64,000 nt of DNA from a virus: positions 5,225 through 69,224 of the IMG/VR virus record IMGVR_UViG_3300046529_000477, one strand, 5' to 3'. Made by a program: the position numbers and the translations under genes. Under the pieces are notes generated by a model, which saw nothing but the letters and a program-made list of their open reading frames with translations, made no database searches and was not told the origin of the DNA. Shown here piece after piece: positions 1,644 to 38,097 of the stretch; positions within the stretch are counted from its first letter, which is position 1; each line of letters starts with the position of its first letter.

Positions 1644-1857
1644 AGCGTTTCCTTTGTTTTTCTGCAAGTGCTTGTATTTTTATGGCTTGTAAATTATCTT
1701 TAATATAGACCGCTAATTTTTGGTCAAACATTCGTTTGCCTTGTTCAGATGTATCATAAAGCCAAAGCAAATATTCACTTGGTACATTACCGAGTTTTGT
1801 GCCCTTATGTTTCCCGAAAAATATCGGTGTATCATCAGTATAGGAATCCATAATCAT
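1630..1857 (-). CDS. DUF3820-like small protein
   Basis: FGKHKGTKLGNVPSEYLLWLY motif. Confidence 0.75.
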   Translation of the reverse strand: MIMDSYTDDTPIFFGKHKGTKLGNVPSEYLLWLYDTSEQGKRMFDQKLAVYIKDNLQAIKIQALAEKQRKRYEKY

Positions 1858-2156
1858 GATTTTAAAGCATTTAAAATTATAGGTGGATAAAGCATATATT
1901 TTACCATTAGGTCGTGCATAGCTTTTCTGCCAACAAAAATTAATAATTCGCCAGTATCTGTATCTAAAACTTCAATGTAAACCATTTTATCTTTCGGATA
2001 AATTTTATGTTGCCTTGCGTGAAATATAGCTGCTGTTTCGTTGTGAGTGTACGATATTTCGTGTCTATCTTTATTCTCCCAAAAGAATTCAGTAGCATCA
2101 CAACGCATTTCTTTATCGCTTTCATAAACCATATATTGCTCTAATTTAAGTTTCAT
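1854..2156 (-). CDS. Hypothetical protein
   Basis: 4-nt ATGA overlaps with both neighbours. Confidence 0.6.
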   Translation of the reverse strand: MKLKLEQYMVYESDKEMRCDATEFFWENKDRHEISYTHNETAAIFHARQHKIYPKDKMVYIEVLDTDTGELLIFVGRKAMHDLMVKYMLYPPIILNALKS

Positions 2157-2961: not shown

Positions 2962-3643
2962 TGAATAAATTATTTTTAATTGGGAATAAACCTTTCCATC
3001 CTTTAGCCATACTTTGTTGAATAATTGCTATTGCTAATTCTTCATTTCCGCCCGCTAAAGAGGTTAATTCGTGTAATGCCGCTTGTTCACTTCCATCACT
3101 TTTGTATTTGAAATCATGTTGCTTGAATTTGTATTTTTTCCATTCTTCCCATAACTCATGGAATTTTCCGTTGAAGGGCATTGAAATTCTTGGAATTTTT
3201 GTCGCTTCTTCCGTTCCCATATCCAATTCCTTTTCCCTATTCCCTATCCCATACCCTTTCCCTAATGGCTTTTTTTGGGTTTTAGTTTGGGTTTTAGTTG
3301 GGTTATTTTTGGGTTTTGACTGGGTTTTAGGTCTGCCACCTCTTCTGCCATTATCTACTTGTTTATCAATGAAGTTAGAGCGTTTTGAAGTTTCCTTTTT
3401 TAATCGTTGATTTTGTATCTTATTTTCGCCAATATCAATGAATTTTTCGCATACAATACCCCAACTTTTATCAAAAGAAGTGCAAAAACGGCGTAAAAAA
3501 TCGGTATTATTTGGCAATATTCCACCACGATTAAACTGTGCTAATAAAAGCCTAACATAGCACCCTAATTCTTCATCTGTCATGTGGCGAGTGCCGCCTT
3601 CAAAATCGTTTACATAAAACGAAAAAGATGGGTTATTAGCCAT
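2864..3643 (-). CDS. DUF1376/YdaU-type phage replication initiator
   Basis: PSFSFYVNDF..GTRHMTDEELGCYVRLL N-terminus, NGRRGGRP linker, C-terminal W.EWK.YK...IIQQSMAKGWKGLF. Confidence 0.75.
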   Translation of the reverse strand: MANNPSFSFYVNDFEGGTRHMTDEELGCYVRLLLAQFNRGGILPNNTDFLRRFCTSFDKSWGIVCEKFIDIGENKIQNQRLKKETSKRSNFIDKQVDNGRRGGRPKTQSKPKNNPTKTQTKTQKKPLGKGYGIGNREKELDMGTEEATKIPRISMPFNGKFHELWEEWKKYKFKQHDFKYKSDGSEQAALHELTSLAGGNEELAIAIIQQSMAKGWKGLFPIKNNLFNGKSNSSTTNSGFSREGVQAELAKRIKERQQG

Positions 3644-4303: not shown

Positions 4304-4495
4304 ATGAAAGCGATTGAACAAGAAAGAGGCGTATCAAAAAAAATGATTGATGCTGAAAAGTATGTTGATGCTTATATTAAGAAGCATAATAAGCCGCCAA
4401 CATATCGAAATGTATGTCTTTACTTCAATCTTAAAAGTTCTTGTACCGCTTATAATAGATTAAAAAGATATAGGCACAAGATGAAAACAGTTTAA
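4304..4495 (+). CDS. LexA-N-terminal-like HTH protein
   Basis: YIKKHNKPPTYRNVC...S.....L..L resembles the LexA DNA-binding domain. Confidence 0.6.
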   Translation: MKAIEQERGVSKKMIDAEKYVDAYIKKHNKPPTYRNVCLYFNLKSSCTAYNRLKRYRHKMKTV

Positions 4496-4976: not shown

Positions 4977-5061
4977 AAAGTTTTTTCATATAGCAGGTTT
5001 AGCTTAGTCAAAAAGGCATCTATATTCTTGTAGTTGCCTAAATTTTAAAAATCAAATTTAT

Positions 5062-5268
5062 ATGAATATTAAATCAAAGTTTATATTGGTATTAATGGGA
5101 GCATTTTATTTTGGGTTTGGTGCGGGTATTAGAATCGAGGGAGGAGGCGGAATTTCTATTGTTATATGGACAACATCAATTTTAGTATGGCTTTTCATTG
5201 CACTTTTTATTTTACCCGATATAAAAGAAATTCTATTCTCAAAAAATACAGAAATCAAAAAATCATAA
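5062..5268 (+). CDS. Small two-TM membrane protein
   Basis: Two hydrophobic segments. Confidence 0.55.
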   Translation: MNIKSKFILVLMGAFYFGFGAGIRIEGGGGISIVIWTTSILVWLFIALFILPDIKEILFSKNTEIKKS

Positions 5269-22507: not shown

Positions 22508-24859
22508 ATGCCTAATGGTGATAAAATAAAAGCATTATATAACGCTGTTTCTAATGATTATAACGTAGGAACATTAGATGAATTTACTCAAAAGCTACAA
22601 GACCCAAATAAAAGACAAGCATTATATAATACAGTAGGCAAAGAATATGATTTAGGAGATTATAATTCTTTTAATCAAAAGTTAGGATTTGATAGTCAAG
22701 AAGTGCAACAACAAGCACAGCAGCAAAATCAAATCCCAATGGCTAATAGCCAAGACTTACAGAAAACATTACAAGGTTATACAGCAACACATCCAATTAG
22801 TAAAAATGCTTCATTAGGCTATGATGTTGGAATTGCCCCAAAAGGAGCAAATGGAAGTCAATTAATAACCAATCAAGAAAATGCAAATGAAGAACAATTA
22901 AATAAAGCAGCCGCAAACACATTTAATAAAACAATAGGACAAGGAGCGTACACCCAAGCCGATAGCACTAAGTTTACCAATCAATTAAAGCAGGGTGTTA
23001 AAAATGGCGACTTAGCAATTAAAAAAGATGCACAAGGAAATGATGTAATAAAAAATGCAGGTAATTTCTTTCAATCATTTAAAGCAGCAGCAGACCAAGC
23101 CCATGCACAAGACATAGAGAATAAATATTTACAAAGTGTTCCAAAAAATGAAGCAATATCATATCTAAATAGAATAGCACAACATCCCCAAACAGGGATA
23201 GTAAAAGAATCAGATATTGCGCCAAGTGGATTAGGCGAAGCAATAGGACAACAATCTCAAATATTAGGCAAAGCTACTATTGGCAGTTTAGCAGGGGCAG
23301 AAACAGGATTAACAGGGGGTGCAAGTGCAGGTTCATTTGCAGCTATCGCAAATGATTTGGCTACTTCTGGTTTTTCTGGAGCATTAAAAAAGACTTATTA
23401 TGAATTAAAAAAAGAAGGTCTTAGCGATAGCGATGCTTACGATAAAGCTACTCATGCAGCATTAACAGGGGAAGCAGTAAGTTTAGGACAAGGAGCATTA
23501 CTTTCAGGTGAAATACCTTTAACCCCAAAAGCAGCAGAAGGTGGTTTATTGAATGGTATAAAACCAAATATTGAAGCACAACAAGGATTTATAAATTCAT
23601 TAAAACATACTGCCACATCAGCCCCTAAAGTAGTAGGTTCAGCAATGGCAGGTTCGGTTATAAATGATATTCAAGAAAATGCTATTGCAAATGGCAATCC
23701 TATTGATGCAAAACAAATGTTTAAAAATTCAATAGATGCAGGTGAATCAATGGCTACAATTCATGGAGCATTAGGATTGTTAACAGCAGTTGCAAATGGA
23801 CAAAAAACAATAGCACCAAGTTATGTAAGACCACAAGCTGAAAATGTTGCATCAAGTTTACCAAGAGCCGATGTTGCTGAATATCTTAATACAAAAGAAC
23901 AAAACGGCGACTTACCGCAAGGAACTACACAAAAAGTGTTAAACACATTATCGGCATTTGATAAACAGAAGGCTATTGTTGCACCCTTTGCAATATCAGA
24001 AGAAAATAAAGCAGCTATTGCGGGTAAATTAGTTCAGAAACAAAAGTTATTGGATGAATTACAAACATTAAAACCAAACGAAAATGCCTTCCCTGAAAGA
24101 ATTGCAGAAATCAATAAAAACATTACAGGAATTGATGGAGAAATCAATAAACTCTATAATGCAAAAAATGTTTTTGAGAAAGAAACTGACACGAATACAG
24201 GCGAGAGCAATTATCAACCAAAGACGTTTGAAGAACTTAAACCGCAAGAAAAAAATGGCATAGAAGTACCAAAAGAATATGGTGATACAGAAGTTAAACA
24301 AAGTGACGAAGGTGATAATAAAACATTCACCCCAAAAGCATACTATACAGAACAACAGGGAAGCCTTACAATCAAAAAAAATATTCCAATTGAGGGAACA
24401 TTCACCGAAAAAGACAAAGCCCAACAAGCAGCAGATAACGCATTAAAGCAACACTATTATGAAAACGGATTACATGACAATGCCAAACCCGATAAAAAAA
24501 TCGAAACCGAAACGCAAACAGAAAAGCCTATCCAAGAAGGAAATGTCGGAGGCAATGCAAATAATGAACCTATCACCACAGAAGAAACGCAGCCTAAACC
24601 AACAAATGTTGCTGAAACTGCACAAGAACCAACAGCAGAAAAAACAGCACCAATAGAAGAACAGCAAACTACTAAAATAAATGATTTACAGGAACAGAAG
24701 TATAGTAAAATGAAAGATGATATTAAAGATGAAACAAAACTTAATCTTATCCCCGCAAAAGAATTAGTGAAAGCAAAAGAACCTATTGAAGCAAAGAAAA
24801 CACATGATGATATTAAAGACAGATATAAGACATTGAAAAAATTAATTGATTGTATATAG
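22508..24859 (+). CDS. Putative large ejection (cargo) protein A
   Basis: Duplicated N-terminal ALYN.V...Y..G....F.QKL motif, Gly/Ala amphipathic segments, disordered C-terminal part. Confidence 0.6.
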   Translation: MPNGDKIKALYNAVSNDYNVGTLDEFTQKLQDPNKRQALYNTVGKEYDLGDYNSFNQKLGFDSQEVQQQAQQQNQIPMANSQDLQKTLQGYTATHPISKNASLGYDVGIAPKGANGSQLITNQENANEEQLNKAAANTFNKTIGQGAYTQADSTKFTNQLKQGVKNGDLAIKKDAQGNDVIKNAGNFFQSFKAAADQAHAQDIENKYLQSVPKNEAISYLNRIAQHPQTGIVKESDIAPSGLGEAIGQQSQILGKATIGSLAGAETGLTGGASAGSFAAIANDLATSGFSGALKKTYYELKKEGLSDSDAYDKATHAALTGEAVSLGQGALLSGEIPLTPKAAEGGLLNGIKPNIEAQQGFINSLKHTATSAPKVVGSAMAGSVINDIQENAIANGNPIDAKQMFKNSIDAGESMATIHGALGLLTAVANGQKTIAPSYVRPQAENVASSLPRADVAEYLNTKEQNGDLPQGTTQKVLNTLSAFDKQKAIVAPFAISEENKAAIAGKLVQKQKLLDELQTLKPNENAFPERIAEINKNITGIDGEINKLYNAKNVFEKETDTNTGESNYQPKTFEELKPQEKNGIEVPKEYGDTEVKQSDEGDNKTFTPKAYYTEQQGSLTIKKNIPIEGTFTEKDKAQQAADNALKQHYYENGLHDNAKPDKKIETETQTEKPIQEGNVGGNANNEPITTEETQPKPTNVAETAQEPTAEKTAPIEEQQTTKINDLQEQKYSKMKDDIKDETKLNLIPAKELVKAKEPIEAKKTHDDIKDRYKTLKKLIDCI
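24459..24656 (+). CDS. Candidate overprinted (+1 frame) basic protein
   Basis: MKTDYMTMPNPIKKSKPKRKQKSLSKKEMSEAMQIM...; nested in the disordered region of 22508..24859. Confidence 0.45.
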   Translation: MKTDYMTMPNPIKKSKPKRKQKSLSKKEMSEAMQIMNLSPQKKRSLNQQMLLKLHKNQQQKKQHQ

Positions 24860-27510: not shown

Positions 27511-28008
27511 GTGGCAAGAAAAGGTAGATATGGAATATATAAGCCGATTATTTTAAAGAATAATGTTGTAAGTGCAGTTAACTATACACTTACAGTTGAC
27601 ACAGGTTTTTATGGTTTAAGTGGACAGGATATAAATTTAAACGTTGGAAGAAATTTAGTTGTTGATACAGGCTTATACAACTTAACAGGCGAAGATGTTT
27701 TATTCAGTGTTGGAAGAAGTATAAGTGTAGATACAGGTTTTTATAATTTAATAGGTGAAGATGTTCTATTTAATATTAGCAGGAATATTTCACTTGATAC
27801 AGGAATTTATGGATTAACAGGAATTGATGTTGGATTTATTTATACACCTTTTAAGCCCCCTTCACCACCATTTTCAGATGGCGGAGGCGGTGGCGGAAGT
27901 AATAGAAATGAAGAAAATAGATTGAGAGAAGAAAATGAGATGAAAATAAGAATTGATGATAATAATTTAATTTCGGTATTTAAAATATTTTTAGAAGAAT
28001 GCCCATAA
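27511..28008 (+). CDS. Repeat-containing fibre-like protein
   Basis: Four ~23-aa repeats: VDTGFYGLSGQD / VDTGLYNLTGED / VDTGFYNLIGED / LDTGIYGLTGID. Confidence 0.7.
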   Translation: MARKGRYGIYKPIILKNNVVSAVNYTLTVDTGFYGLSGQDINLNVGRNLVVDTGLYNLTGEDVLFSVGRSISVDTGFYNLIGEDVLFNISRNISLDTGIYGLTGIDVGFIYTPFKPPSPPFSDGGGGGGSNRNEENRLREENEMKIRIDDNNLISVFKIFLEECP

Positions 28009-31000
28009 AAGATTGTTTAGAGCAAAAAGGTGTAAAGCAACAACACATAGATGAAATAGGAAATATTGTAAAATCTTTCACTGATAAAGGAATGTCTGAA
28101 AGAGATGCAGGTATTGAAGCAGTAAAAGAATATCATAAAAAACTTAGTTCAGATTTAAACAATTTAAAAAAATCAGTAGGCATTAAAACAGAGAAATACG
28201 TAGCACCAACAAAATACGAACAAACCAAAAATGAATTTGATAAACAAATTATTTCACAACAAAATACAAAACAAAATGAAAAAGCAAATGAGCCAATCCC
28301 AAGCAATGAAAAAATGGGAGAGCAGCAAGCAAGACCAGAAAATGGACAAGAAGTACGGGGAGAACAGCCCAAAGGACAAGGCAATGGACAAGAAAATGGT
28401 AGCCAAAATGATAAACAAGAAAAAATAGGAGGTCAAAATGCCACTACCAAAAGCGCCGAACAACAGCAAGAAGGCGATAAACAAGCAGGTATCAGCGAAC
28501 ATCAAGGAGTTGGTACATCACGGAACGAAGCCCCGACCAATGAACCAAATAATAGCAATAGCGGAATCAACAGCGAGAGGGCGCAACAAGAAAAAGTAAA
28601 TCAAGGCGGTGAACCTCCAAAAGAAGGCAAACCGCCTTTAACTGAAAAGCCCGAAGATGAAACCACAAGTATTAAAAATGCAACTACCAAATTAAGACGT
28701 GAACAATATGGATTAGACGAAGAAATTCCAGCAGCTAAGAAAGAATTTGGTACAACATGGGAAGAAGCAAAGGACAAAATAGCAAATGGTTATAACCCGC
28801 AAGATTTAGTTGATGAACTTGCTGCTAAACCAAGACCAATATCAGATGTTGAAAACGCAATCTTATTACATAACCAAAATACCAAAGAAATTAATCTTAT
28901 AGACTTAAATAAACAGATTAATGATGCAGCAGAAAAAGGGAATGAACAAGATTTACAAGAAGCCAAAACAGCCAAAGCAAGAGTATTAGATGAACTACAA
29001 AAAATATATGATGTCAATAAAGCCGTAGGTACTGAACAAGGTAGAGGATTAGCAGCACGTAAGATGATGGTTGATAGGCGTTATTCATTAGCTAATATGG
29101 TTGCAGAAATAAGGGCAACTGCCAATGATGGCAAACCATTAAGCGAAGAACAACAAGCTGAAGTAGAGGCACTACATAAAAAAATAAATGAGACACAAAA
29201 AGCATTTGACGACTATGTAAAACAAGCTGAATCGGAAATAAAAGGATTGCAAGAAAAAATATTAGGCAAGAAAGTAGGAAATAAAAAATCAGCAGCACAA
29301 AAGTTAAGAGACTTAGCAGATAAGTTAGAAAAAAGTACAGCAGGACAAACTTATGCAAGCATAGTTCCCATTACTCCAAAAATGATTGCAGGTGCAATGC
29401 GTTTGATTGCGGATGGATTAGAAAAAGGGGAAGATATTTTAAACTTAATAAAAGATGCTATTGAAAAAATAAAAGGTGAAAATAAAGATATTGATGAAGC
29501 TAAGTTAACCAAAGCCATCAATAATGAAGTTATAAATAGCGGTATTATTTCAGCAACAGAGAAAGAAAGAAAGACAAGTAAAGATTTAGGCGGATTGCTT
29601 TTGAATAATAAGTTAGATAGAAAAGCACTTGAATTAAAATCAGCAGCAGATAGAGCCAAAAATGAATTTGATATAAAAGTAAAAAAAGATGCAGCCAAAA
29701 AAGAAAGTTTCTTTAGTAAAGTACAAAATGTTTTTACAAAATTTCAACGTGGATTTAAGTTATCTAATATTCTTACATTGGGCAAATTGGAAGCAGCAGG
29801 ATTGGCAAGATTGACTACTACTCCATTAGAAGATATTGTAGGCGCAGGATATTCAAAGATATTACCAAGATTAGCTAAAGGTGCAATAGGAGAAGGCGGC
29901 GGTTTAAATGTAAAAGAAACAGCAAATGCTTATAAGACAGGATTGATTGAGGGAATGAAAGATGCTGCTACTATAATGAAAAAAGGTAGTCAAGGCAAAA
30001 GTGATATAGATGTAGCATTTGGTAAATTAGGTGATATGCCGCCTGAAGCAATAGACTTTTTCGGGCAATTACATAGCGCACTTAAAGCTCCTATTAAACG
30101 ATTTGCATTTGAACGTTCATTATCAAAAAGATTAAGAAGAAATATAGCAAATGGTGTTGATGTATCAGACCCAATGGTGCAAACAGAAATATTAACAGGT
30201 GCATATAAAGATGCTAATAGAGCAATCTTTATGCAGGATAATAAAGTGGCAACAGGATTTCAAAACTTAATTAAATATTTTGAAAGCAAAGACAAGGCAA
30301 CAGGGAAAGCAGTGAATAAACCACTTGCAACAACTTTACAATGGATGATACCATTTGTGAAAATACCTACTAATATAGCAGCAGAAACAGGGGCGCACGT
30401 TTATGGAGTTCCATTAGAGATAGGTAAAGGAATAGTAAGAATATTTGATAAAAATCAGAAAGGGTTAACAGCAGAAGAAAAAGATATAATCTTTAGAAAC
30501 TTAAAGAAAGGAACATTGGGTGCAGCAGCAATGGCATTGGGTTATTTTAATCCTCAAAACTTTGGTGGTTTTTATCAGAAAGGACAAAAAAGAGAACAAG
30601 ATGATGCACAAGCATTAGGATTGAAATTATTTGGTAAACGTATTCCTGCATGGTTTATTGAAGCCCCAATATTTCAAGCAATGCAGTTAGGTGCGACAGT
30701 AAGAAGAATTAAAGATGAAAGAGTTAAAGGAGAAGAAAAAGGAATTGGTGAAGGCATTTGGGCAGGAGCATTAGGATTGGTAGATAAAGTGCCAATGGTT
30801 GACCAACCAATGAGAATGGCTGAATTGTTTTCAAGTTCAAGAGATAGGCAATATTATTTAGGAGAACTTGCAAAGAGTACTGTTGATCCCGCATTAGTAA
30901 CTTATTTAGCCAATGTAACAGACCCCGCAGATAGAAAATCTATAATGGGTAAAATATTAAATCCAGAAAACAAAAGAACAAATACTTCAATAGTAGAACA

Positions 31001-31463
31001 TATTAAAAGTGGTATTCCTGGATTACGTGAAACATTACCATTAAAAGAAACAACATTTACTGAAGAAAATAAAAAAGACCCAACATTCAAATACTTTTTG
31101 GATAAAGGATTAGAACTACCAAATACATCAATGAAGTATGAAGAAATAACTAATGAAGAAAAAGGAACTAAAAAAACAGTAGCTGATTATCCAAAAGAAA
31201 TACAAGATAAATACAAGGTAGAACATACAAAACAACTCAAACAGATATTAGCACCAATAGTAAGCGGTAGAGAAAAAGTATATGTAAAATCATACAAAAA
31301 AGCAAATGGTGAAACAACAACAGCAGTTTCAATTGATGAGCCAAATGGTAATTATAAATCAGAAAACATAAATAAGTTATCAAAAGAACAACTTGCCCAA
31401 TTATTACATTTAGCACAATCTCATGCAACAACAGCAACAAAAGAAAAAATATTTAATAAATGA
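27999..31463 (+). CDS. Putative large ejection (cargo) protein B
   Basis: 1154 aa, helical/coiled, IPFVKIPTNI motif typical of large virion-injected proteins. Confidence 0.6.
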   Translation: MPIKDCLEQKGVKQQHIDEIGNIVKSFTDKGMSERDAGIEAVKEYHKKLSSDLNNLKKSVGIKTEKYVAPTKYEQTKNEFDKQIISQQNTKQNEKANEPIPSNEKMGEQQARPENGQEVRGEQPKGQGNGQENGSQNDKQEKIGGQNATTKSAEQQQEGDKQAGISEHQGVGTSRNEAPTNEPNNSNSGINSERAQQEKVNQGGEPPKEGKPPLTEKPEDETTSIKNATTKLRREQYGLDEEIPAAKKEFGTTWEEAKDKIANGYNPQDLVDELAAKPRPISDVENAILLHNQNTKEINLIDLNKQINDAAEKGNEQDLQEAKTAKARVLDELQKIYDVNKAVGTEQGRGLAARKMMVDRRYSLANMVAEIRATANDGKPLSEEQQAEVEALHKKINETQKAFDDYVKQAESEIKGLQEKILGKKVGNKKSAAQKLRDLADKLEKSTAGQTYASIVPITPKMIAGAMRLIADGLEKGEDILNLIKDAIEKIKGENKDIDEAKLTKAINNEVINSGIISATEKERKTSKDLGGLLLNNKLDRKALELKSAADRAKNEFDIKVKKDAAKKESFFSKVQNVFTKFQRGFKLSNILTLGKLEAAGLARLTTTPLEDIVGAGYSKILPRLAKGAIGEGGGLNVKETANAYKTGLIEGMKDAATIMKKGSQGKSDIDVAFGKLGDMPPEAIDFFGQLHSALKAPIKRFAFERSLSKRLRRNIANGVDVSDPMVQTEILTGAYKDANRAIFMQDNKVATGFQNLIKYFESKDKATGKAVNKPLATTLQWMIPFVKIPTNIAAETGAHVYGVPLEIGKGIVRIFDKNQKGLTAEEKDIIFRNLKKGTLGAAAMALGYFNPQNFGGFYQKGQKREQDDAQALGLKLFGKRIPAWFIEAPIFQAMQLGATVRRIKDERVKGEEKGIGEGIWAGALGLVDKVPMVDQPMRMAELFSSSRDRQYYLGELAKSTVDPALVTYLANVTDPADRKSIMGKILNPENKRTNTSIVEHIKSGIPGLRETLPLKETTFTEENKKDPTFKYFLDKGLELPNTSMKYEEITNEEKGTKKTVADYPKEIQDKYKVEHTKQLKQILAPIVSGREKVYVKSYKKANGETTTAVSIDEPNGNYKSENINKLSKEQLAQLLHLAQSHATTATKEKIFNK
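28276..28428 (+). CDS. Overprinted (+1 frame) small Lys/Met-rich protein
   Basis: MKKQMSQSQAMKKWESSKQDQKMDKKYGENSPKDKAMDKKMVAKMINKKK with AAAACAAAATG leader. Confidence 0.6.
   Translation: MKKQMSQSQAMKKWESSKQDQKMDKKYGENSPKDKAMDKKMVAKMINKKK
28438..28599 (+). CDS. Overprinted (+1 frame) small basic phage protein
   Basis: MPLPKAPNNSKKAINKQVSANIKELVHHGTKPRPMNQIIAIAESTARGRNKKK, preceded by AGGAGGT. Confidence 0.7.
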   Translation: MPLPKAPNNSKKAINKQVSANIKELVHHGTKPRPMNQIIAIAESTARGRNKKK

Positions 31464-31798
31464 GTGAATTAATAGATTATAAAAAGAAATGTGAAGAATA
31501 TGAAAAGAGGATGGGCATAGGACAAAATGACCCCGCTAAAGATGGCTATTTAGTTATGGTAAGTATTTTACAACAACAGAATGAATATCTAAGTAGTTTT
31601 AAAATAAAATCATTTATAGCTTCGGAAGAAAAGGGAGACCAGTTAGCTTATAAAAATGCTAAAGACTTATGGGAAAATTTACCAAATACTATTGAATCAG
31701 TTTCTAAATTAAAAATAGCATTGAAAATGGAAGGAGAAGAAAAGAGAAATAATTATAAACCAATTTCTTCAAAAGAAATAGCTAACGGTAATGTTTAA
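31460..31798 (+). CDS. Putative terminase small subunit
   Basis: 112-aa helical ORF overlapping the TerL start; positional call only. Confidence 0.4.
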   Translation: MSELIDYKKKCEEYEKRMGIGQNDPAKDGYLVMVSILQQQNEYLSSFKIKSFIASEEKGDQLAYKNAKDLWENLPNTIESVSKLKIALKMEGEEKRNNYKPISSKEIANGNV

Positions 31799-33926
31799 AG
31801 ATTTAAGAAATGGGTACATTGATATAGCTGATAATTCTTTTGGATTTGTCTATAAATGCTATTTGCCTCCTGTTGGGTATGGTTTAAATGCGGCTAATGG
31901 ATTAATTCAGGAAACAGATATTTTACTTTCATCAGAAATACCAACAGAACAGTTTTGGGAAAGACCTTCATTACCACATGACTTTAAATTCAAGAGAAAA
32001 AAAGAAAAAGATATTCAGAGAATAGACCCTTATTATGTTGATGAATATTTAGAGATAATAAGAAAAAGAGAATGGAAAAGAAGATTATGTGGTGTATGGT
32101 TTTGGAACTATAATCCTATAAGAGAATGTAGTGAACTAATATACATAACAGGGCTTCATTATTTATATATAACCTATTGGAAGTTTCAAGGTAAATTCTT
32201 AGATTTTAGAATAGCAGATAGAGACTTTTTTTATTTCGTTGCCTATTGCATGGAAGATGAAAAATGTTTAGGCATAAATGAAATAACCAAACGTAAGAAT
32301 GGAAAGACAGCAAGAGCAGGTTGTTGGGCTTATGAAAGAGTTTCAAGAATGAATAATCATCATGCAGGTTTACAATCTAAAAGTGATGATGATGCTGAAG
32401 ATGCTTTTTTCAAAGCAGTCATTAATCCTTGGCAGAAGTTACCCGATTTTTTTAAGCCAAGATATGATTTAATGAAAGGCGAAGAACCAAATGAATTAAG
32501 GTTTTTCGCAACAGCACGTAGAGGTAGCAGAATAGAAGAAGAAGATGATAGTATAGAAGAACCATTGGAATCTTTTTTTGATTATAAAGTAGCAACAGAG
32601 TCAGCTTATGATGGGCCGGAATTGCACACATACGTTTCAGATGAAGCAGGTAAAACAAAAAAACCAGTAAGCATAAAAGAAAGACAAAATGTAACAAGAT
32701 TTTGCACTGAAATAGATTTTGAATTAAAGGGAAAGCATTACTACACTACTACAGTAGAACCGGAAAAAAATGAAGAAGAAAATATAGAATTTCAAGAATT
32801 GACAGCAAATAGCAATCCACTTGAAAGAGATGAAAATGGATTTACCGGAACAGGACTTTATACAATATTCCTACCTGCACAAAAAGGAATGTATGTAAAT
32901 AAAGAATTTGCTAAATACGGTTTTGTAGATGAAGAAATGAATCTACGTACTATATCAAATAAGATAGCATCATTACAAGAGAAAAATGATACAAGAGGAA
33001 TAAGTTCATTTAAAAGAAAAAACCCAAGAAATTTAAAAGAAGCATTTAGCGCAGATGGTGAAAACAGTTTATACAATCCCGAACTTTTAAATAACCAATT
33101 AGACGCAATTCAATGGACAAATAAATTCACTGAATTTGGAAATTTAGAATGGGTAAATGGAGATAGATTATTTATTGAAAAGAAGTTGGCAGATGGCAAA
33201 ATAGAAATTGTACCAAATAAATTAAAATGGGTTGTTTCTGCAACAGGCAAATTTGAGAAATTAAAAGATTGGTTTCCTAAAGAAGAAAATAATATTTATT
33301 ACAGAAATGGACAATTTTTTACAAACAATGACAAGTCAATAAATATAGGCGGTGACCCTTTTAAATATGATAAAACCAAAGATAAAAGACGTTCTAACTG
33401 TGCTGCATTTGCTTATCAATTACCAGACCCTATTTATCCTGATGATACTTATGATGATACTTTTTGTTTAAGATATTCTTATAGAGAAGAAAGCACGAGA
33501 CTATCAAATGAAGATATGCTAAAAATGGCATGGTGGTGCGGTTGTAAAATATTATTTGAAAGAAATGTAAACCATTGGAAAGATTATTTCATAGATAATA
33601 ATTGCGGTGATTTTTTAGTATGGTTGGATGGTGAAGTAGAGCCAGGAATTATAACAGCAACGGGAAGTTCAGGAGTACAAGCTATTTGCGATTATACAGA
33701 AGCATATATTAATCAACACATAGAAAAAGTATTTTTCAAAACATTAATAAGAAAAGAAACAGGTTGGTTGGGATTTAAAGTAGAAGATACTGAAAAATTT
33801 GATGAACCAATGGCAGCAGGGATAACATTAATAAGAGTAAAAGGAATGAAACGAAAATTAAAATCACAACTGCCAAAAAGAAATATATCAGATTACTTTT
33901 CAAAAACAAGCGGTTGGACTTATTGA
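31791..33926 (+). CDS. terL: Terminase large subunit
   Basis: ITGLHYLY, Walker A-like KRKNGKT, Walker B YVSDEAGK, nuclease GGDP and FERN, D..MA. Confidence 0.9.
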   Translation: MFKDLRNGYIDIADNSFGFVYKCYLPPVGYGLNAANGLIQETDILLSSEIPTEQFWERPSLPHDFKFKRKKEKDIQRIDPYYVDEYLEIIRKREWKRRLCGVWFWNYNPIRECSELIYITGLHYLYITYWKFQGKFLDFRIADRDFFYFVAYCMEDEKCLGINEITKRKNGKTARAGCWAYERVSRMNNHHAGLQSKSDDDAEDAFFKAVINPWQKLPDFFKPRYDLMKGEEPNELRFFATARRGSRIEEEDDSIEEPLESFFDYKVATESAYDGPELHTYVSDEAGKTKKPVSIKERQNVTRFCTEIDFELKGKHYYTTTVEPEKNEEENIEFQELTANSNPLERDENGFTGTGLYTIFLPAQKGMYVNKEFAKYGFVDEEMNLRTISNKIASLQEKNDTRGISSFKRKNPRNLKEAFSADGENSLYNPELLNNQLDAIQWTNKFTEFGNLEWVNGDRLFIEKKLADGKIEIVPNKLKWVVSATGKFEKLKDWFPKEENNIYYRNGQFFTNNDKSINIGGDPFKYDKTKDKRRSNCAAFAYQLPDPIYPDDTYDDTFCLRYSYREESTRLSNEDMLKMAWWCGCKILFERNVNHWKDYFIDNNCGDFLVWLDGEVEPGIITATGSSGVQAICDYTEAYINQHIEKVFFKTLIRKETGWLGFKVEDTEKFDEPMAAGITLIRVKGMKRKLKSQLPKRNISDYFSKTSGWTY

Positions 33927-34484: not shown

Positions 34485-34508
34485 TAATTTTACAATACCA
34501 AAACTAAT
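34485..34508 (+). promoter_or_regulatory. Late promoter/leader motif copy
   Basis: TAATTTTAC-AAT-ACCAAAACTAAT just before the portal ATG. Confidence 0.7.
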
Positions 34509-34512
34509 TAAG

Positions 34513-36888
34513 ATGGCTGAAAATACATGGGCTTATCCGCCAATGAACATTGATCCAAGACGCAAAAATTTTGCGTGGATACTCCAATACCTTAAAGCAT
34601 CGTGGAGTGATGCCTGTAATTTCATGCCCTCCGCCATGCTGTTCAATAGAAGCCAAAACAGATTTTGGGAAATAAAGCAATACGTATTAGGCAAGCAGAG
34701 TATATCAAAATATAAGAAGATACAACCTGGAGATGAAATACAAAACAATACCGAATTAAATAATGATAGTACCGTATTAGCTATGATACCTAAGTTTATT
34801 GAAATAGCTAAATCCAAAATACTTCAGAAAGAATATAATCTTGAAGCAGCAGCGGTTGACCCAATGGCTAAGAGCGAAGAAGATGAATATTTTAATCAGA
34901 TGAAGATTAAGATAATGATGAATAATATGCTTACTCAAATGCAATCTTCACTTGCACAATCTCCATTAGTAAAATTAAAAAGTAATGAGCCACAAGATAT
35001 GGAGCAATTACAAATGCAAATGGATTTTGGATATAAGCATATAATGGCAATGGAAGCAGAAGAAGGAATACAATTAACATTTGGGCAGAATAGATTTGAA
35101 CATCAAAGAACAGAATTAGTTGATAATCTTTATGACTTTGGAATTGGTGGTTTTAAAGTTTGGATTGATGAAAATGGGCAAGTAAAATTTAGGGCTGTTT
35201 GTGGTGAAAACTTTATATCTTCTTATTGTCTTAAATCTGATTTTACAGATGGCAATCATGCGGGTGAAATTATACAAGTAAAAGTTTCTGATTTAGCCCC
35301 TTACTTCAATGCAGGGCAAATGGAACAGATATGTAAAGTAGTAGCAGGTAAATATGGCAATCCAAGTTCATTTGATGTAAGACAAAATAGATGGTGGGAT
35401 AAGTTTACAGTAATGGTTTTAGACTTGCAGTTCTTTAGTTGGAATAGTACGGTTTATGAATCTAAGATTGATAAAAGCGGAAATGAAAGATTTGGTAAAA
35501 CAGATTTTGCAAATATGAGATTTGTAGGAAACTCAAATCCATATAGCAACATGGCTTATGAAAATGATGAAAGCGAACAAATAGCACAACCAACAAAGAA
35601 TGTTCTTGATGATACAATGGTAGGATTAGTTGATGATGATGTAAGAGGCGGTATGCCAAAACCTGTTTATATGTCAAGCACTGAAAAAGTAGTTTATAAA
35701 GGTAAATGGATTATAGGGACAGAATTAATGTACGATTGGGGTCTAAAAGAAGAACAAGCAAGTGAATTATCTTCATGGTGGAATAAGAAATTGGATTACA
35801 TAATGGGTGCGCCAATGTTTTATAAGATGCAGTTTACAGGCATTTCAGAAAGATTAATTGTACTTGCAGATGCTTATCAATTAACATGGCGCAAACTCCA
35901 AAATCTAAAAAATAAACTCATTCCTTATTTGATTGAACTTGATTTAACATCACTTGAAAATGTTGGATTAGGTCGGGGAAATGAGCAAATGACACCTGCA
36001 CAGATAATAGATTTCGCTTTCTCTAATTTTATTCTATTGAAACGAAGTACAGACCCTTATAAAAATAATCCCAATTATAAGTCAATGGATATTCAGCCAA
36101 CAGGAATGTTGGAAGCATTTGCACAATTATATGCAGATTTGGATAGGCTTTATTTAATGATACAGCAGGTATCGGGTTTGAATGAATTAACAGATGGCAG
36201 CACACCTAATCCCAAAATGCTTGTTCCCGTTGCAGATGCAGCTATGCAAGCCACTAACAACGCATTATATCTAATAAGTAATTGTGAAAAAGATTTGATA
36301 GAAAGATTGGGGCAATTAGTTGTTGAGAAAATACAGTTAGCCGTTCAACGTGGTAAAGTGGCAGGATATGCAAAGGCATTAGGTAGCAGTACAGTAAAAT
36401 TCTTTGAAATAAACCCTGAAATAAGCCTTTATGAATTAGGCATTTTCATTACAGATAATCTTTCTTCTGAAGAAAAACAAATGCTATTGCAGGAAATAAA
36501 CATAAAAGATAGTCAAGGTTTGCTAACTCCCGCAGATAAATTATTCTTGATAAAAAGCAAAAGCATTACACAAGCAATGGTTTATCTAAACTATATCACA
36601 AAGAAAAGGGGTGATGATGCACATCAAAAACAAATGCAGTTGGTTCAACAACAGACAATGGGCAATCAGCAAACAGCCGTTGCAGCAGAACAAATGAAAC
36701 AGCAAACGATTGTATTGCAAGGGAAAATACAAATGGAAATAGAATCAGCAAAAGGACAATGGCTCTACATAACAGAGCAAATGAAAAAAAGCAGCGACCA
36801 ACAAGAAGCAGGAATACAAGCTCATGCAAAAGTATTATCAGCAAGTATTACTGCAAGTGCAAAACAAGCGGCAGCATCTATTGGCTAA
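34513..36888 (+). CDS. Portal protein
   Basis: 791 aa after TerL; GKQSISKYK, IPKFIEI, AVDP, SGLNELTDGSTP, Q-rich C-terminus. Confidence 0.85.
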   Translation: MAENTWAYPPMNIDPRRKNFAWILQYLKASWSDACNFMPSAMLFNRSQNRFWEIKQYVLGKQSISKYKKIQPGDEIQNNTELNNDSTVLAMIPKFIEIAKSKILQKEYNLEAAAVDPMAKSEEDEYFNQMKIKIMMNNMLTQMQSSLAQSPLVKLKSNEPQDMEQLQMQMDFGYKHIMAMEAEEGIQLTFGQNRFEHQRTELVDNLYDFGIGGFKVWIDENGQVKFRAVCGENFISSYCLKSDFTDGNHAGEIIQVKVSDLAPYFNAGQMEQICKVVAGKYGNPSSFDVRQNRWWDKFTVMVLDLQFFSWNSTVYESKIDKSGNERFGKTDFANMRFVGNSNPYSNMAYENDESEQIAQPTKNVLDDTMVGLVDDDVRGGMPKPVYMSSTEKVVYKGKWIIGTELMYDWGLKEEQASELSSWWNKKLDYIMGAPMFYKMQFTGISERLIVLADAYQLTWRKLQNLKNKLIPYLIELDLTSLENVGLGRGNEQMTPAQIIDFAFSNFILLKRSTDPYKNNPNYKSMDIQPTGMLEAFAQLYADLDRLYLMIQQVSGLNELTDGSTPNPKMLVPVADAAMQATNNALYLISNCEKDLIERLGQLVVEKIQLAVQRGKVAGYAKALGSSTVKFFEINPEISLYELGIFITDNLSSEEKQMLLQEINIKDSQGLLTPADKLFLIKSKSITQAMVYLNYITKKRGDDAHQKQMQLVQQQTMGNQQTAVAAEQMKQQTIVLQGKIQMEIESAKGQWLYITEQMKKSSDQQEAGIQAHAKVLSASITASAKQAAASIG

Positions 36889-36914: not shown

Positions 36915-36938
36915 TATATTTACAGTACCAAAACTAAT
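36915..36938 (+). promoter_or_regulatory. Late promoter/leader motif copy
   Basis: TATATTTAC-AGT-ACCAAAACTAAT. Confidence 0.7.
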
Positions 36939-36941
36939 TTA

Positions 36942-38054
36942 ATGTCCGATAAAGCAGTAATTACAGGTAATTCGACATTGGGTGAAAGTCTTAAAGAAGT
37001 AGCAGTTGAAACTCCCGAAACTACTCCAACACCGCAGGAAAATCAAACATCTCAAACATCAGTTACACCAAGTGGTGATTTAGAAACAATCAATATCCCT
37101 TCGCCTGAGGCTGCCCCAATAGAAGAAAATTCAAGCGCCTTTGATATTCAGTTTGGTGAAGAAAATGCGCCACAAGAGAATATTCCACAACAATCTTTTA
37201 CAGATTGGAGAGCAGCATTAAAAAGTGTTGATAGAAATGAATTATTGAAAGAATTAGGAATTACTGAATTTGCGGCTCAAATAAATGAGCATCTTAAAAA
37301 AGGTGGTAAAGCATCAGATTACATAGCAGCCAAAGGCATTAATTGGAATGAAGTTCCTGATATGGACTTAGTTAGGGCTGAATTTGATGCAAAATATCCA
37401 ACACTATCCAAAGAACAAAAAGCATACAAGTTTAATAAAATGTATGTTGCTAATGAAGTAGATGATGAAGAAACGGCAATGGATAAATCCATTAACTTAC
37501 AAACAGCAGCATACGAATCAAGACAAAGAAGAATTGCCGAACAGCAAAACTTCAAAGAGCCAGAAGTTATTCAGCCTGAACAAAGTGCTGAATATACAAA
37601 TTGGCAACAACAACAAGCACAGTTAAATACCAATAGAGAAGCATTTAAAAATTTCCTCATTAATCATGATGCCACAAAGTCGCTACTGCAAAACAAGAGA
37701 GTTGCCATACCAGTAGATGATAAAGGTACAGTTTACAATTTTACGATTGATAGACCAGAGGCAGTTATAAATGCACTTTCAGATGGGGGCAAAATTTGGA
37801 GCGAGCTAATTAAAAATGCACAGGGCGAGCCGGACATTTCTAAGCAGCAACAAATCATTCTTTTTGCATCCAATCCGCAAAAATTTATTGGGCAAATATT
37901 TAATTATGGTAAAATGCAGGGTATCAAACAGAAAGTGTCGGAAAACAATAATCTGCCGCCAGTTTCAGGAACGATGCCTCGCAATGGTGCAGTTAACCAA
38001 ACAGAAAGAGACGCATGGAAAAGTGCGAGATCAAGTACGTTAGGAGGTAACTAA
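36942..38054 (+). CDS. Putative scaffolding protein
   Basis: Acidic disordered N-terminus; lies between portal and capsid genes. Confidence 0.65.
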   Translation: MSDKAVITGNSTLGESLKEVAVETPETTPTPQENQTSQTSVTPSGDLETINIPSPEAAPIEENSSAFDIQFGEENAPQENIPQQSFTDWRAALKSVDRNELLKELGITEFAAQINEHLKKGGKASDYIAAKGINWNEVPDMDLVRAEFDAKYPTLSKEQKAYKFNKMYVANEVDDEETAMDKSINLQTAAYESRQRRIAEQQNFKEPEVIQPEQSAEYTNWQQQQAQLNTNREAFKNFLINHDATKSLLQNKRVAIPVDDKGTVYNFTIDRPEAVINALSDGGKIWSELIKNAQGEPDISKQQQIILFASNPQKFIGQIFNYGKMQGIKQKVSENNNLPPVSGTMPRNGAVNQTERDAWKSARSSTLGGN

Positions 38055-38097
38055 CCCAAATAGTTATTTATTTTTTTTATTCCAAAACTAATTAAAA

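Follow-up and report, generated by a model that had tools for sequence, protein, structure and literature searches.

A conserved small basic phage gene, probably embedded out of frame in the linker of a large packaging-module protein

Introduction

In phage lambda, the small Rz1 gene, which encodes a lipoprotein, lies wholly inside the larger Rz gene in the +1 frame. To our knowledge, embedded out-of-frame phage genes are known from a few textbook cases only, and gene callers forbid them. Published work describes the embedded, overlapped and separated architectures of two-component spanin genes (PMC6139136), an HNH endonuclease lying out of frame, hidden in an insertion, the ShiLan domain, that a phage methylase gene reads through in frame (PMC11855218), classical viral overprinting, in which a new gene is born inside an old one (PMC8227390), and the large polyvalent proteins of phages (PMC5512222). 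Here we analyze a 64,000-nucleotide stretch of viral DNA (positions 5,225 to 69,224 of IMG/VR record IMGVR_UViG_3300046529_000477, which is 69,224 bp long with inverted terminal repeats), referred to throughout as the window. Two open reading frames (ORFs), ORF1 and ORF2, lie there inside a gene for a protein of 1154 amino acids (aa). The explanation that we consider probable from sequence comparison is that ORF2 is a genuine, conserved gene lying out of frame in the linker of this host gene, with ORF1 most likely no gene at all. The elements in question are as follows.

27999..31463, plus strand: host gene, encoding a 1154-aa large protein of the packaging/structural module
27999..28238, plus strand: host N-terminal domain, residues 1 to about 80, conserved with the related locus L001, hydrophobic fraction 0.28–0.30
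28239..28718, plus strand: polar low-complexity linker of the host protein, residues 81–240, T-poor and enriched in G+C (GC)
28276..28428, plus strand: ORF1, 50 aa (65 aa if read from the ATG at 28231), probably a composition-driven open frame
28438..28599, plus strand: ORF2, predicted gene embedded in the host gene (+1 frame) and coding for a basic protein of 53 aa in the phrog_2423 family

Like the embedded spanins of that survey, ORF2 is contained entirely within a bigger gene, in the +1 frame, and the gene pair occurs elsewhere in overlapped or separate form. Unlike Rz1, ORF2 has no cysteine, so it carries no lipobox or lipoprotein signal. Its host is a 1154-aa protein encoded beside terminase and portal genes rather than a small membrane protein of a lysis cassette, the host frame across ORF2 is a disordered linker, and the hosts of other nested copies are differing large proteins. 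We therefore rejected an identity as an embedded o-spanin, both for want of a cysteine and for the position of the host gene next to terminase and portal.

The likeness to the ShiLan endonuclease lies in a pre-existing gene that sits out of frame in a host gene and is read through, free of stops, as a loop or linker (PMC11855218). That element codes for a homing endonuclease and acts as a selfish insertion (PMC11855218), whereas ORF2 has no nuclease features and its family is normally an ordinary gene of the packaging module. With classical overprinting (PMC8227390), the locus shares one stretch of DNA with two coding frames and one disordered product, but the polarity is reversed: the embedded small gene appears to be old and widespread, and what is new is the linker reading in the large protein. 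Finally, the hosts of nested copies resemble the large polyvalent proteins of phages (PMC5512222) in being giant multidomain proteins encoded beside packaging genes, among them one with LPD38 at locus L009 and one with a methyltransferase domain at L005; the fused protein P0032 carries a histidine phosphatase domain. The host protein of the window differs from them in having no Pfam domain. The terms frameshift, linker, alternative frame and small basic do not occur in the polyvalent-protein survey (PMC5512222), and a description of small genes nested in giant genes was not found in the literature on phage overlapping genes and polyvalent proteins that we covered, most subscription journals being outside its scope.

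Results

ORF2 encodes a predicted small basic protein of the phrog_2423 family

The predicted ORF2 protein is strongly basic, with an isoelectric point of 11.3 and 12 lysine and arginine residues against two aspartate and glutamate residues. Residues 15–53 match profile positions 9–44 of the 52 positions of phrog_2423 with an expectation value (E) of 5.3e-5, and a homologue from locus L004 matches the same family at 6.1e-7. ORF2 displays the traits of phrog_2423, including a length of ~50 aa, an M-P-L start, N-I-x-E-L and Q-I-[VI]-A-I-A motifs and a tail rich in basic residues. Among 5.8 billion proteins, we found 31 called homologues of 53–75 aa that are 70–87% identical to ORF2. Together with the phrog_2423 match, they bear out the resemblance to small basic phage proteins proposed in a preliminary description of this DNA. 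A search of the same proteins found no homologue of 35–114 aa for ORF1; of the two peptides whose homologues that description proposed to seek, the second has them.

An alignment of 34 family sequences has 12 invariant columns, including M1, P2, L3, N21, E24, L25, Q37, I38 and A40. The family profile detected 242 clusters at E≤1e-3, 19 of them at E≤1e-10, among 1.84 billion representatives. In the Atlas, ORF2 has a recognition of 3088 and neighbours that are small hypothetical proteins of viruses (score 0.93, with 205 shared features), and an AlphaFold model computed with the alignment predicts two helices, residues 11–27 and 35–46, at a mean predicted local distance difference test score (pLDDT) of 66. 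Pfam gave no match to ORF2 at E≤1, a profile search of the PDB with the family gave matches at chance level only (E 0.44 and 1.2), and Pfam identified no family in ten longer proteins that carry an ORF2-type domain N-terminally. The Pfam family DUF6496 (PF20106) has a similar length and a similar C-terminal helix motif, and 16% of the members of one neighbouring Atlas cluster carry it. This identity was rejected, as ORF2 had no match at E≤1 and the L004 homologue scored 14.6 bits against a cut-off of 24. We found no paper on DUF6496 or on the motif of the ORF2 family.

The small gene occurs free, fused in frame and nested in large ORFs

Two scans of IMG/VR and Joint Genome Institute metagenomes yielded 34 loci, and a further IMG/VR scan added 14 more, several of which are repeated contigs. 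The 31 copies analyzed are the window and 30 loci; L023 was left out for an interrupted match frame, L019 and L035 for truncation at a contig edge, and L004 because it is the same contig as L030. Twenty-four copies stand free, and seven lie inside ORFs of 1032 to 2698 codons, measured from stop to stop, as listed.

Window: host ORF of 1159 codons
L007: host ORF of 1887 codons
L009: host ORF of 2196 codons
L011: host ORF of 1111 codons
L017: host ORF of 2698 codons
L005: host ORF of at least 1957 codons
L024: host ORF of at least 1032 codons

All seven nested copies are full length and free of stops and have a start codon (six ATG, one GTG). In every one the host frame is the small frame +2, which places the small gene in the +1 frame of its host. 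The stop codon of a free copy usually overlaps the start codon of the next gene (ATGA or TAATG), putting that gene in the -1 frame. A third arrangement is fusion in frame. P0032 (1137 aa) carries an ORF2-type domain at its N-terminus followed by the histidine phosphatase domain, a related domain opens the long ORFs of L131 (from 3415) and L132, and 45 of the 150 best family representatives exceed 100 aa, the match lying N-terminally in most of them.

The nested-copy hosts are 22–31% identical or unrelated beyond the cassette formed by the small gene, and Pfam finds LPD38 in L009 (E 2.7e-30) and a methyltransferase in L005. The C-terminal module of the window host protein is common to L001–L003, L007, L010, L012, L013/L015 and L017. 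A homologue of the large protein lies upstream of a free small gene in L010 (221..1699 and 1712..1882, respectively), L012 (31..3978 and 4324..4494) and L013 (2..2194 and 5001..5174), so the two genes stay close together in loci without nesting as well. L013 has its free gene two genes upstream of the one for the terminase large subunit, and the sole named PHROGs on the neighbours of free copies are terminase large subunit and tail fibre. Within the large protein of L012, the module is apparently present twice.

In a tree of 30 family members, two of 27 inner branches are well supported, and nested and free copies are intermixed. Judged by its wide distribution and its standing free in most relatives, the small gene is probably the older partner. 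Comparison of these sequences, together with the selection signals described below, indicates an old and widespread family that is embedded out of frame in the large gene of the window and in others, with the marks of selection on both frames.

Both frames of the nested copies bear signs of selection

Among the 24 sequencing runs listed as containing this sequence, none is from RNA. Contigs from four soil and rhizosphere runs are identical to the window over 27950..28950 wherever they cover it, and one run spans the whole interval. A sequencing frameshift is therefore unlikely; the same identity leaves no polymorphism for a codon-position comparison within these runs. Between nested copies, differences pile up at the third positions of the small frame, with 387, 297 and 549 differences at first, second and third positions in total, 5, 7 and 17 between the window and L007, and 7, 6 and 23 between L011 and L017. 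Conservation by codon position, proposed in the preliminary description as a check on dual coding, thus bears out the ORF2 frame. Amino acid identity is higher in the small frame than in the host frame in all 21 nested pairs, for example 85% against 63%. These data indicate purifying selection on the small frame while nested.

The host frame also carries a signature. Nested copies contain no host-frame stops, whereas each of the 24 free copies contains one to nine. The frequency of T at small-frame third positions is 0.00–0.05 (0.02) in nested copies and 0.11–0.39 (0.23) in free ones, and the host-frame reading of nested compared with free copies is less hydrophobic (0.08 versus 0.21), more acidic (0.18 versus 0.09) and less basic (0.11 versus 0.21). 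This comparison of composition used seven nested and 20 free copies, four having been dropped as duplicates; L030 is not represented, since it was dropped as a duplicate of L004, itself outside the set. Because the synonymous sites of nested copies are depleted of T and the host frame reads as a stop-free, polar and acidic linker, both frames look selected, and the comparison points to selection on the host frame as well.

A linker is expected to be the fastest-evolving part of a protein such as the window host. In this case the best-conserved 160 nucleotides (nt) lie in the linker, and their conservation is that of the other, small frame. The DNA of the window and L007 can be aligned in a block from ~4 nt 5' of the ATG to the last lysine codons of ORF2, with flanks at random level. 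Over this block the ORF2 proteins are 85% identical, while the host proteins have in common a collinear domain immediately downstream of the cassette, at 27% identity over 275 aa (E 1e-11), and no similarity upstream of it.

These boundaries bear on the possibility that ORF2 is a silent relic, that is, a free gene recently swallowed and no longer translated, whose conservation predates the fusion. The tree, too weakly supported to show whether nested copies have one origin, and the rare use of Shine-Dalgarno-like motifs in this phage are compatible with such a relic. Its predictions fit poorly with the retention of start codon, full length and an uninterrupted frame in seven of seven nested copies, with the sharp drop from 85% identity in ORF2 to 27% in the downstream host domain, and with the T-depletion of synonymous sites, which implies long nested residence; ORF2 is also the sole family copy in the 69-kb virus record. 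We consider a relic improbable.

The same boundaries, coinciding with ORF2, could be those of a mobile or recombining module that lands in the linkers of large genes and is read through, in the manner of out-of-frame endonuclease insertions. The divergence of the nested-copy hosts beyond the cassette, the mixture of nested and free copies in the tree and a GC content above that of the flanks would agree with mobility. The 53-aa protein, however, has no nuclease or recombinase features, the raised GC is accounted for by T-depletion forced by the host frame, and the position of the family in the packaging module is stable. The window-L007 alignment suggests no repeats or target duplications, though no search aimed at them was made. 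A mobile cassette is accordingly a very improbable origin of the nesting. Selection on a resident gene, the reading that we prefer, makes the real dual coding claimed in the preliminary description probable for ORF2, on the comparative evidence of free and nested copies and of selection in both frames; the same claim is not supported for ORF1.

Putative translation start and the predicted downstream hairpin

Two further elements flank ORF2.

28427..28432, plus strand: AGGAGG, overlapping the TAG stop of ORF1, 5 nt 5' of the ORF2 ATG
28603..28638, plus strand: predicted RNA hairpin with an 8-base-pair GC-rich stem, 6 nt after the G-AAA-AAG end of ORF2

The AGGAGG is the sole one of ten plus-strand AGGAGG sites in the window to precede a start codon, and Shine-Dalgarno-like motifs occur at 4 of the window's 43 gene starts. 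The ORF2 start at 28438 falls in an A-rich stretch with little predicted RNA structure (-8.9 kcal/mol, z -0.9). The hairpin has a predicted energy of -17.2 kcal/mol (z -2.4, with 5 of 200 shuffles folding equally well) and is unusual in this AT-rich phage.

A stem at this distance from the lysine codons recalls programmed -1 frameshifting, whose sites combine a slippery heptamer with a conserved structure 5–9 nt downstream and which, in ribosomes that start at 28438 and slip at G-AAA-AAG, would yield a minor product that joins the small domain to a C-terminal part of 950 aa. Relative to the small ORF, the host reads in exactly the -1 frame in seven of seven nested copies, the small ORFs end in A-rich lysine runs, and P0032 is a natural in-frame fusion whose junction past the conserved core resembles the window as read in the host frame, the pattern expected from a shift by one base within the lysine tail. 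The heptamer is non-canonical, however, and conservation of the hairpin does not extend to the other six nested loci: L007, L011 and L024 have no comparable hairpin at that spacing, and L009, L017 and L005 have weak or differently placed stems. Lysine tails are equally present in free-standing copies. Moreover, the +1 frame of the small gene contains stops in most copies, so the constant frame relation can be explained without frameshifting. Frameshifting as the explanation of the locus is highly unlikely.

A second, unrelated small basic family is nested in the same relative frame

Small basic genes of the phrog_1375 type were collected at 82 loci, comprising 80 from IMG/VR (L039–L118), L001 (3275..3448) and L002 (3005..3193). 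Thirty-five (L001, L002 and 33 of the 80) are flagged as nested, 40 are free and seven are in-frame fusions, such as the 1041-aa protein of L078. The host of a nested copy is always in the small frame +2. Twenty-two of the 35 sit inside giant ORFs that extend for hundreds of codons to each side, although L001 has only 94 upstream; 11 lie near the start of hosts of 270–419 codons, and two (L070 and L072) are doubtful, the upstream part being possibly noncoding.

Among 21 giant-nested copies compared (L084 was left out), identity is 0.49 in the small frame and 0.29 in the host frame, and it is higher in the small frame in 207 of 210 pairs. Differences at first, second and third codon positions number 3920, 3411 and 5001 in the giant-nested copies and 7878, 7994 and 15003 in the free ones.

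ORF1 and the chance expectation for open frames

The preliminary description had read ORF1 and ORF2 as a two-gene mini-operon overprinted on the linker. The arrangement that it reported agrees with the sequence: tandem nested ORFs in the +1 frame of 27999..31463, separated by 9 nt and both ending in NKKK. Its account of the main frame as a low-complexity linker richer in GC than its flanks also holds. The hydrophobic fraction is 0.03–0.12 for residues 81–240, compared with 0.26 across the entire host protein, and GC reaches 0.40–0.47 in 28250..28650 against 0.27–0.33 on either side. AT skew in the linker rises to 0.6–0.7, reflecting a great scarcity of T. The GC bump is explained by the T-depletion of the small gene's synonymous sites, which the host frame imposes.

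Given this scarcity of T, open frames are expected here by chance. Permuting the codons yields at least one ATG-initiated +1-frame ORF of 50 aa or more in 40% of trials and synonymous resampling does so in 59%, and the 14 long genes of the window (29,790 nt) hold ten nested same-strand ORFs of that kind. Two such +1-frame ORFs arise in only 0.2% of permutations and 2.1% of resamplings, a rarity that would favour two real genes. The open frames by themselves are not above chance as judged from these sequence models, and it is homology and comparative evidence that lift ORF2 above it. Further +1-frame ORFs of 54–75 aa occur in other long genes of the window, three in 22508..24859 and two in 36942..38054; these served as background counts only.

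What favours a two-gene operon beyond the pairing is that both predicted proteins are basic and end in NKKK, and that ORF1 occupies the place of a genuine nested phrog_1375-type gene. The L001 copy at 3275..3448 (phrog_1375 E 2.5e-5, phrog_5320 E 1.2e-4) lies at the equivalent linker position, and its ATG aligns with the ORF1 ATG at 28276. ORF1 itself showed no membership of phrog_1375 or phrog_5320 by PHROG, profile or BLASTP searches. It had no PHROG or Pfam match of note, it was absent from the matches of a profile of 70 phrog_1375-type peptides against 1180 window ORFs, and BLASTP found no match to the L001 copy and, for the L002 copy, an E of 0.096. In Atlas recognition ORF1 reaches 1876, below the mark of 2300, and stops break its frame in L007, where the DNA cannot be aligned. 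The mini-operon, which lacks a homologue for its first gene and has its frame broken in a relative, is not supported by these comparisons, and two real genes are a very unlikely account of the locus. ORF1 is most likely not a gene; to judge from these searches, it is a chance frame, or at the very most a decayed remnant of the phrog_1375-type gene found at this place in L001.

The host gene and its neighbourhood

L001 is the closest relative of the host protein, with 52% identity over residues 1–1023 by tblastn. Pfam found no domain above threshold in the host protein, which thus shows no polyvalent-protein-associated domain; a PDB search returned no match of note, and tblastn against GenBank phages gave no match with either the host protein or ORF2. 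A 112-aa ORF lies directly 3' of the host gene, followed by the packaging genes listed here.

31791..33926, downstream of the host gene: terminase large subunit, phrog_6681
34513..36888, downstream of the host gene: portal gene, phrog_6547

The portal gene and the next two genes have a common upstream motif, ccaaaactaatt, just 5' of their ATGs (34495..34512, 36925..36941 and 38080..38097). The rarity of Shine-Dalgarno-like motifs beside this motif may mean that translation initiates differently in the host, or that the three genes have a late promoter in common.

Discussion

Several observations weigh against reading ORF2 as a real gene and ORF1 as none. The confidence of the ORF2 structure model is moderate (pLDDT 66), and ORF2 departs from the codon usage of the phage in its third positions, which have a G+C of 0.58 where those of the host gene itself have ~0.18. 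The AGGAGG may be a ribosome-binding site for ORF2, which is doubtful in a phage that rarely uses such motifs. The alignments were guided by the small-frame protein, which somewhat favours the small frame in the codon-position counts. The poorly supported tree leaves the number of nesting origins uncounted, and nested copies may have diverged in part while they were still free, with engulfment recent and repeated. For ORF1, the alignment of its ATG with that of the L001 gene and the BLASTP value to the L002 copy would be compatible with a decayed phrog_1375-type homologue.

A plausible course of events would begin with the small gene alone in a packaging/structural module, with the next gene in its -1 frame through an overlapping stop and start. 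A neighbouring large reading frame would then have run across the small gene in the -1 frame already used by the downstream gene. Such engulfment would have occurred in the window phage and, independently or anciently, in several others, and the other frame of the small gene would have become the linker between the host N-terminal domain and the large C-terminal module. The third positions of the small gene would have been cleared of T, removing host-frame stops and biasing the linker toward polar and acidic residues. A single late mRNA would serve for both proteins, with the large one starting at 27999 and the small one by internal initiation at 28438. The suggestion in the preliminary description that a small gene supplies the disordered linker is consistent with the polar, stop-free linker over ORF2; its names DNA-condensing core protein and ejection or cargo protein are tentative labels.

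The likeliest role for the small protein, though a doubtful one, is to work alongside large proteins of the virion or of packaging, perhaps as a binder of nucleic acid. This role is proposed because of its basic charge, its in-frame fusions and the place of the family in the packaging module, beside polyvalent-protein and terminase genes. A wider proposal, on which we are evenly divided, is that gene engulfment is a recurrent route to giant phage proteins. Two unrelated small basic families would have been swallowed in the same relative frame by large virion or polyvalent genes and have stayed functional, with the -1 frame co-opted as a linker. Under this proposal, the -1 frame of the small gene is naturally without hydrophobic codons once third-position T is removed. 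As a bolder extension, occasional -1 slippage on the lysine tail may give a tagged isoform like the natural in-frame fusions.

One conserved small family thus occurs on its own, as an in-frame fusion and out of frame within the genes of unrelated giant proteins, and both frames show signs of selection. This may provide a concrete route for the assembly of multidomain polyvalent proteins, in which a reading frame crosses a small gene whose other frame turns into a linker, and it would mean that ancestry can lie with the embedded partner, as in overprinting run in reverse. The basic families phrog_2423 and phrog_1375, tightly tied to large virion and packaging proteins, merit functional study. 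If this reading is true, standard annotation of uncultivated phages would systematically miss a class of conserved small genes, which suggests that many small phage genes are missing from the annotations of metagenomic viruses.

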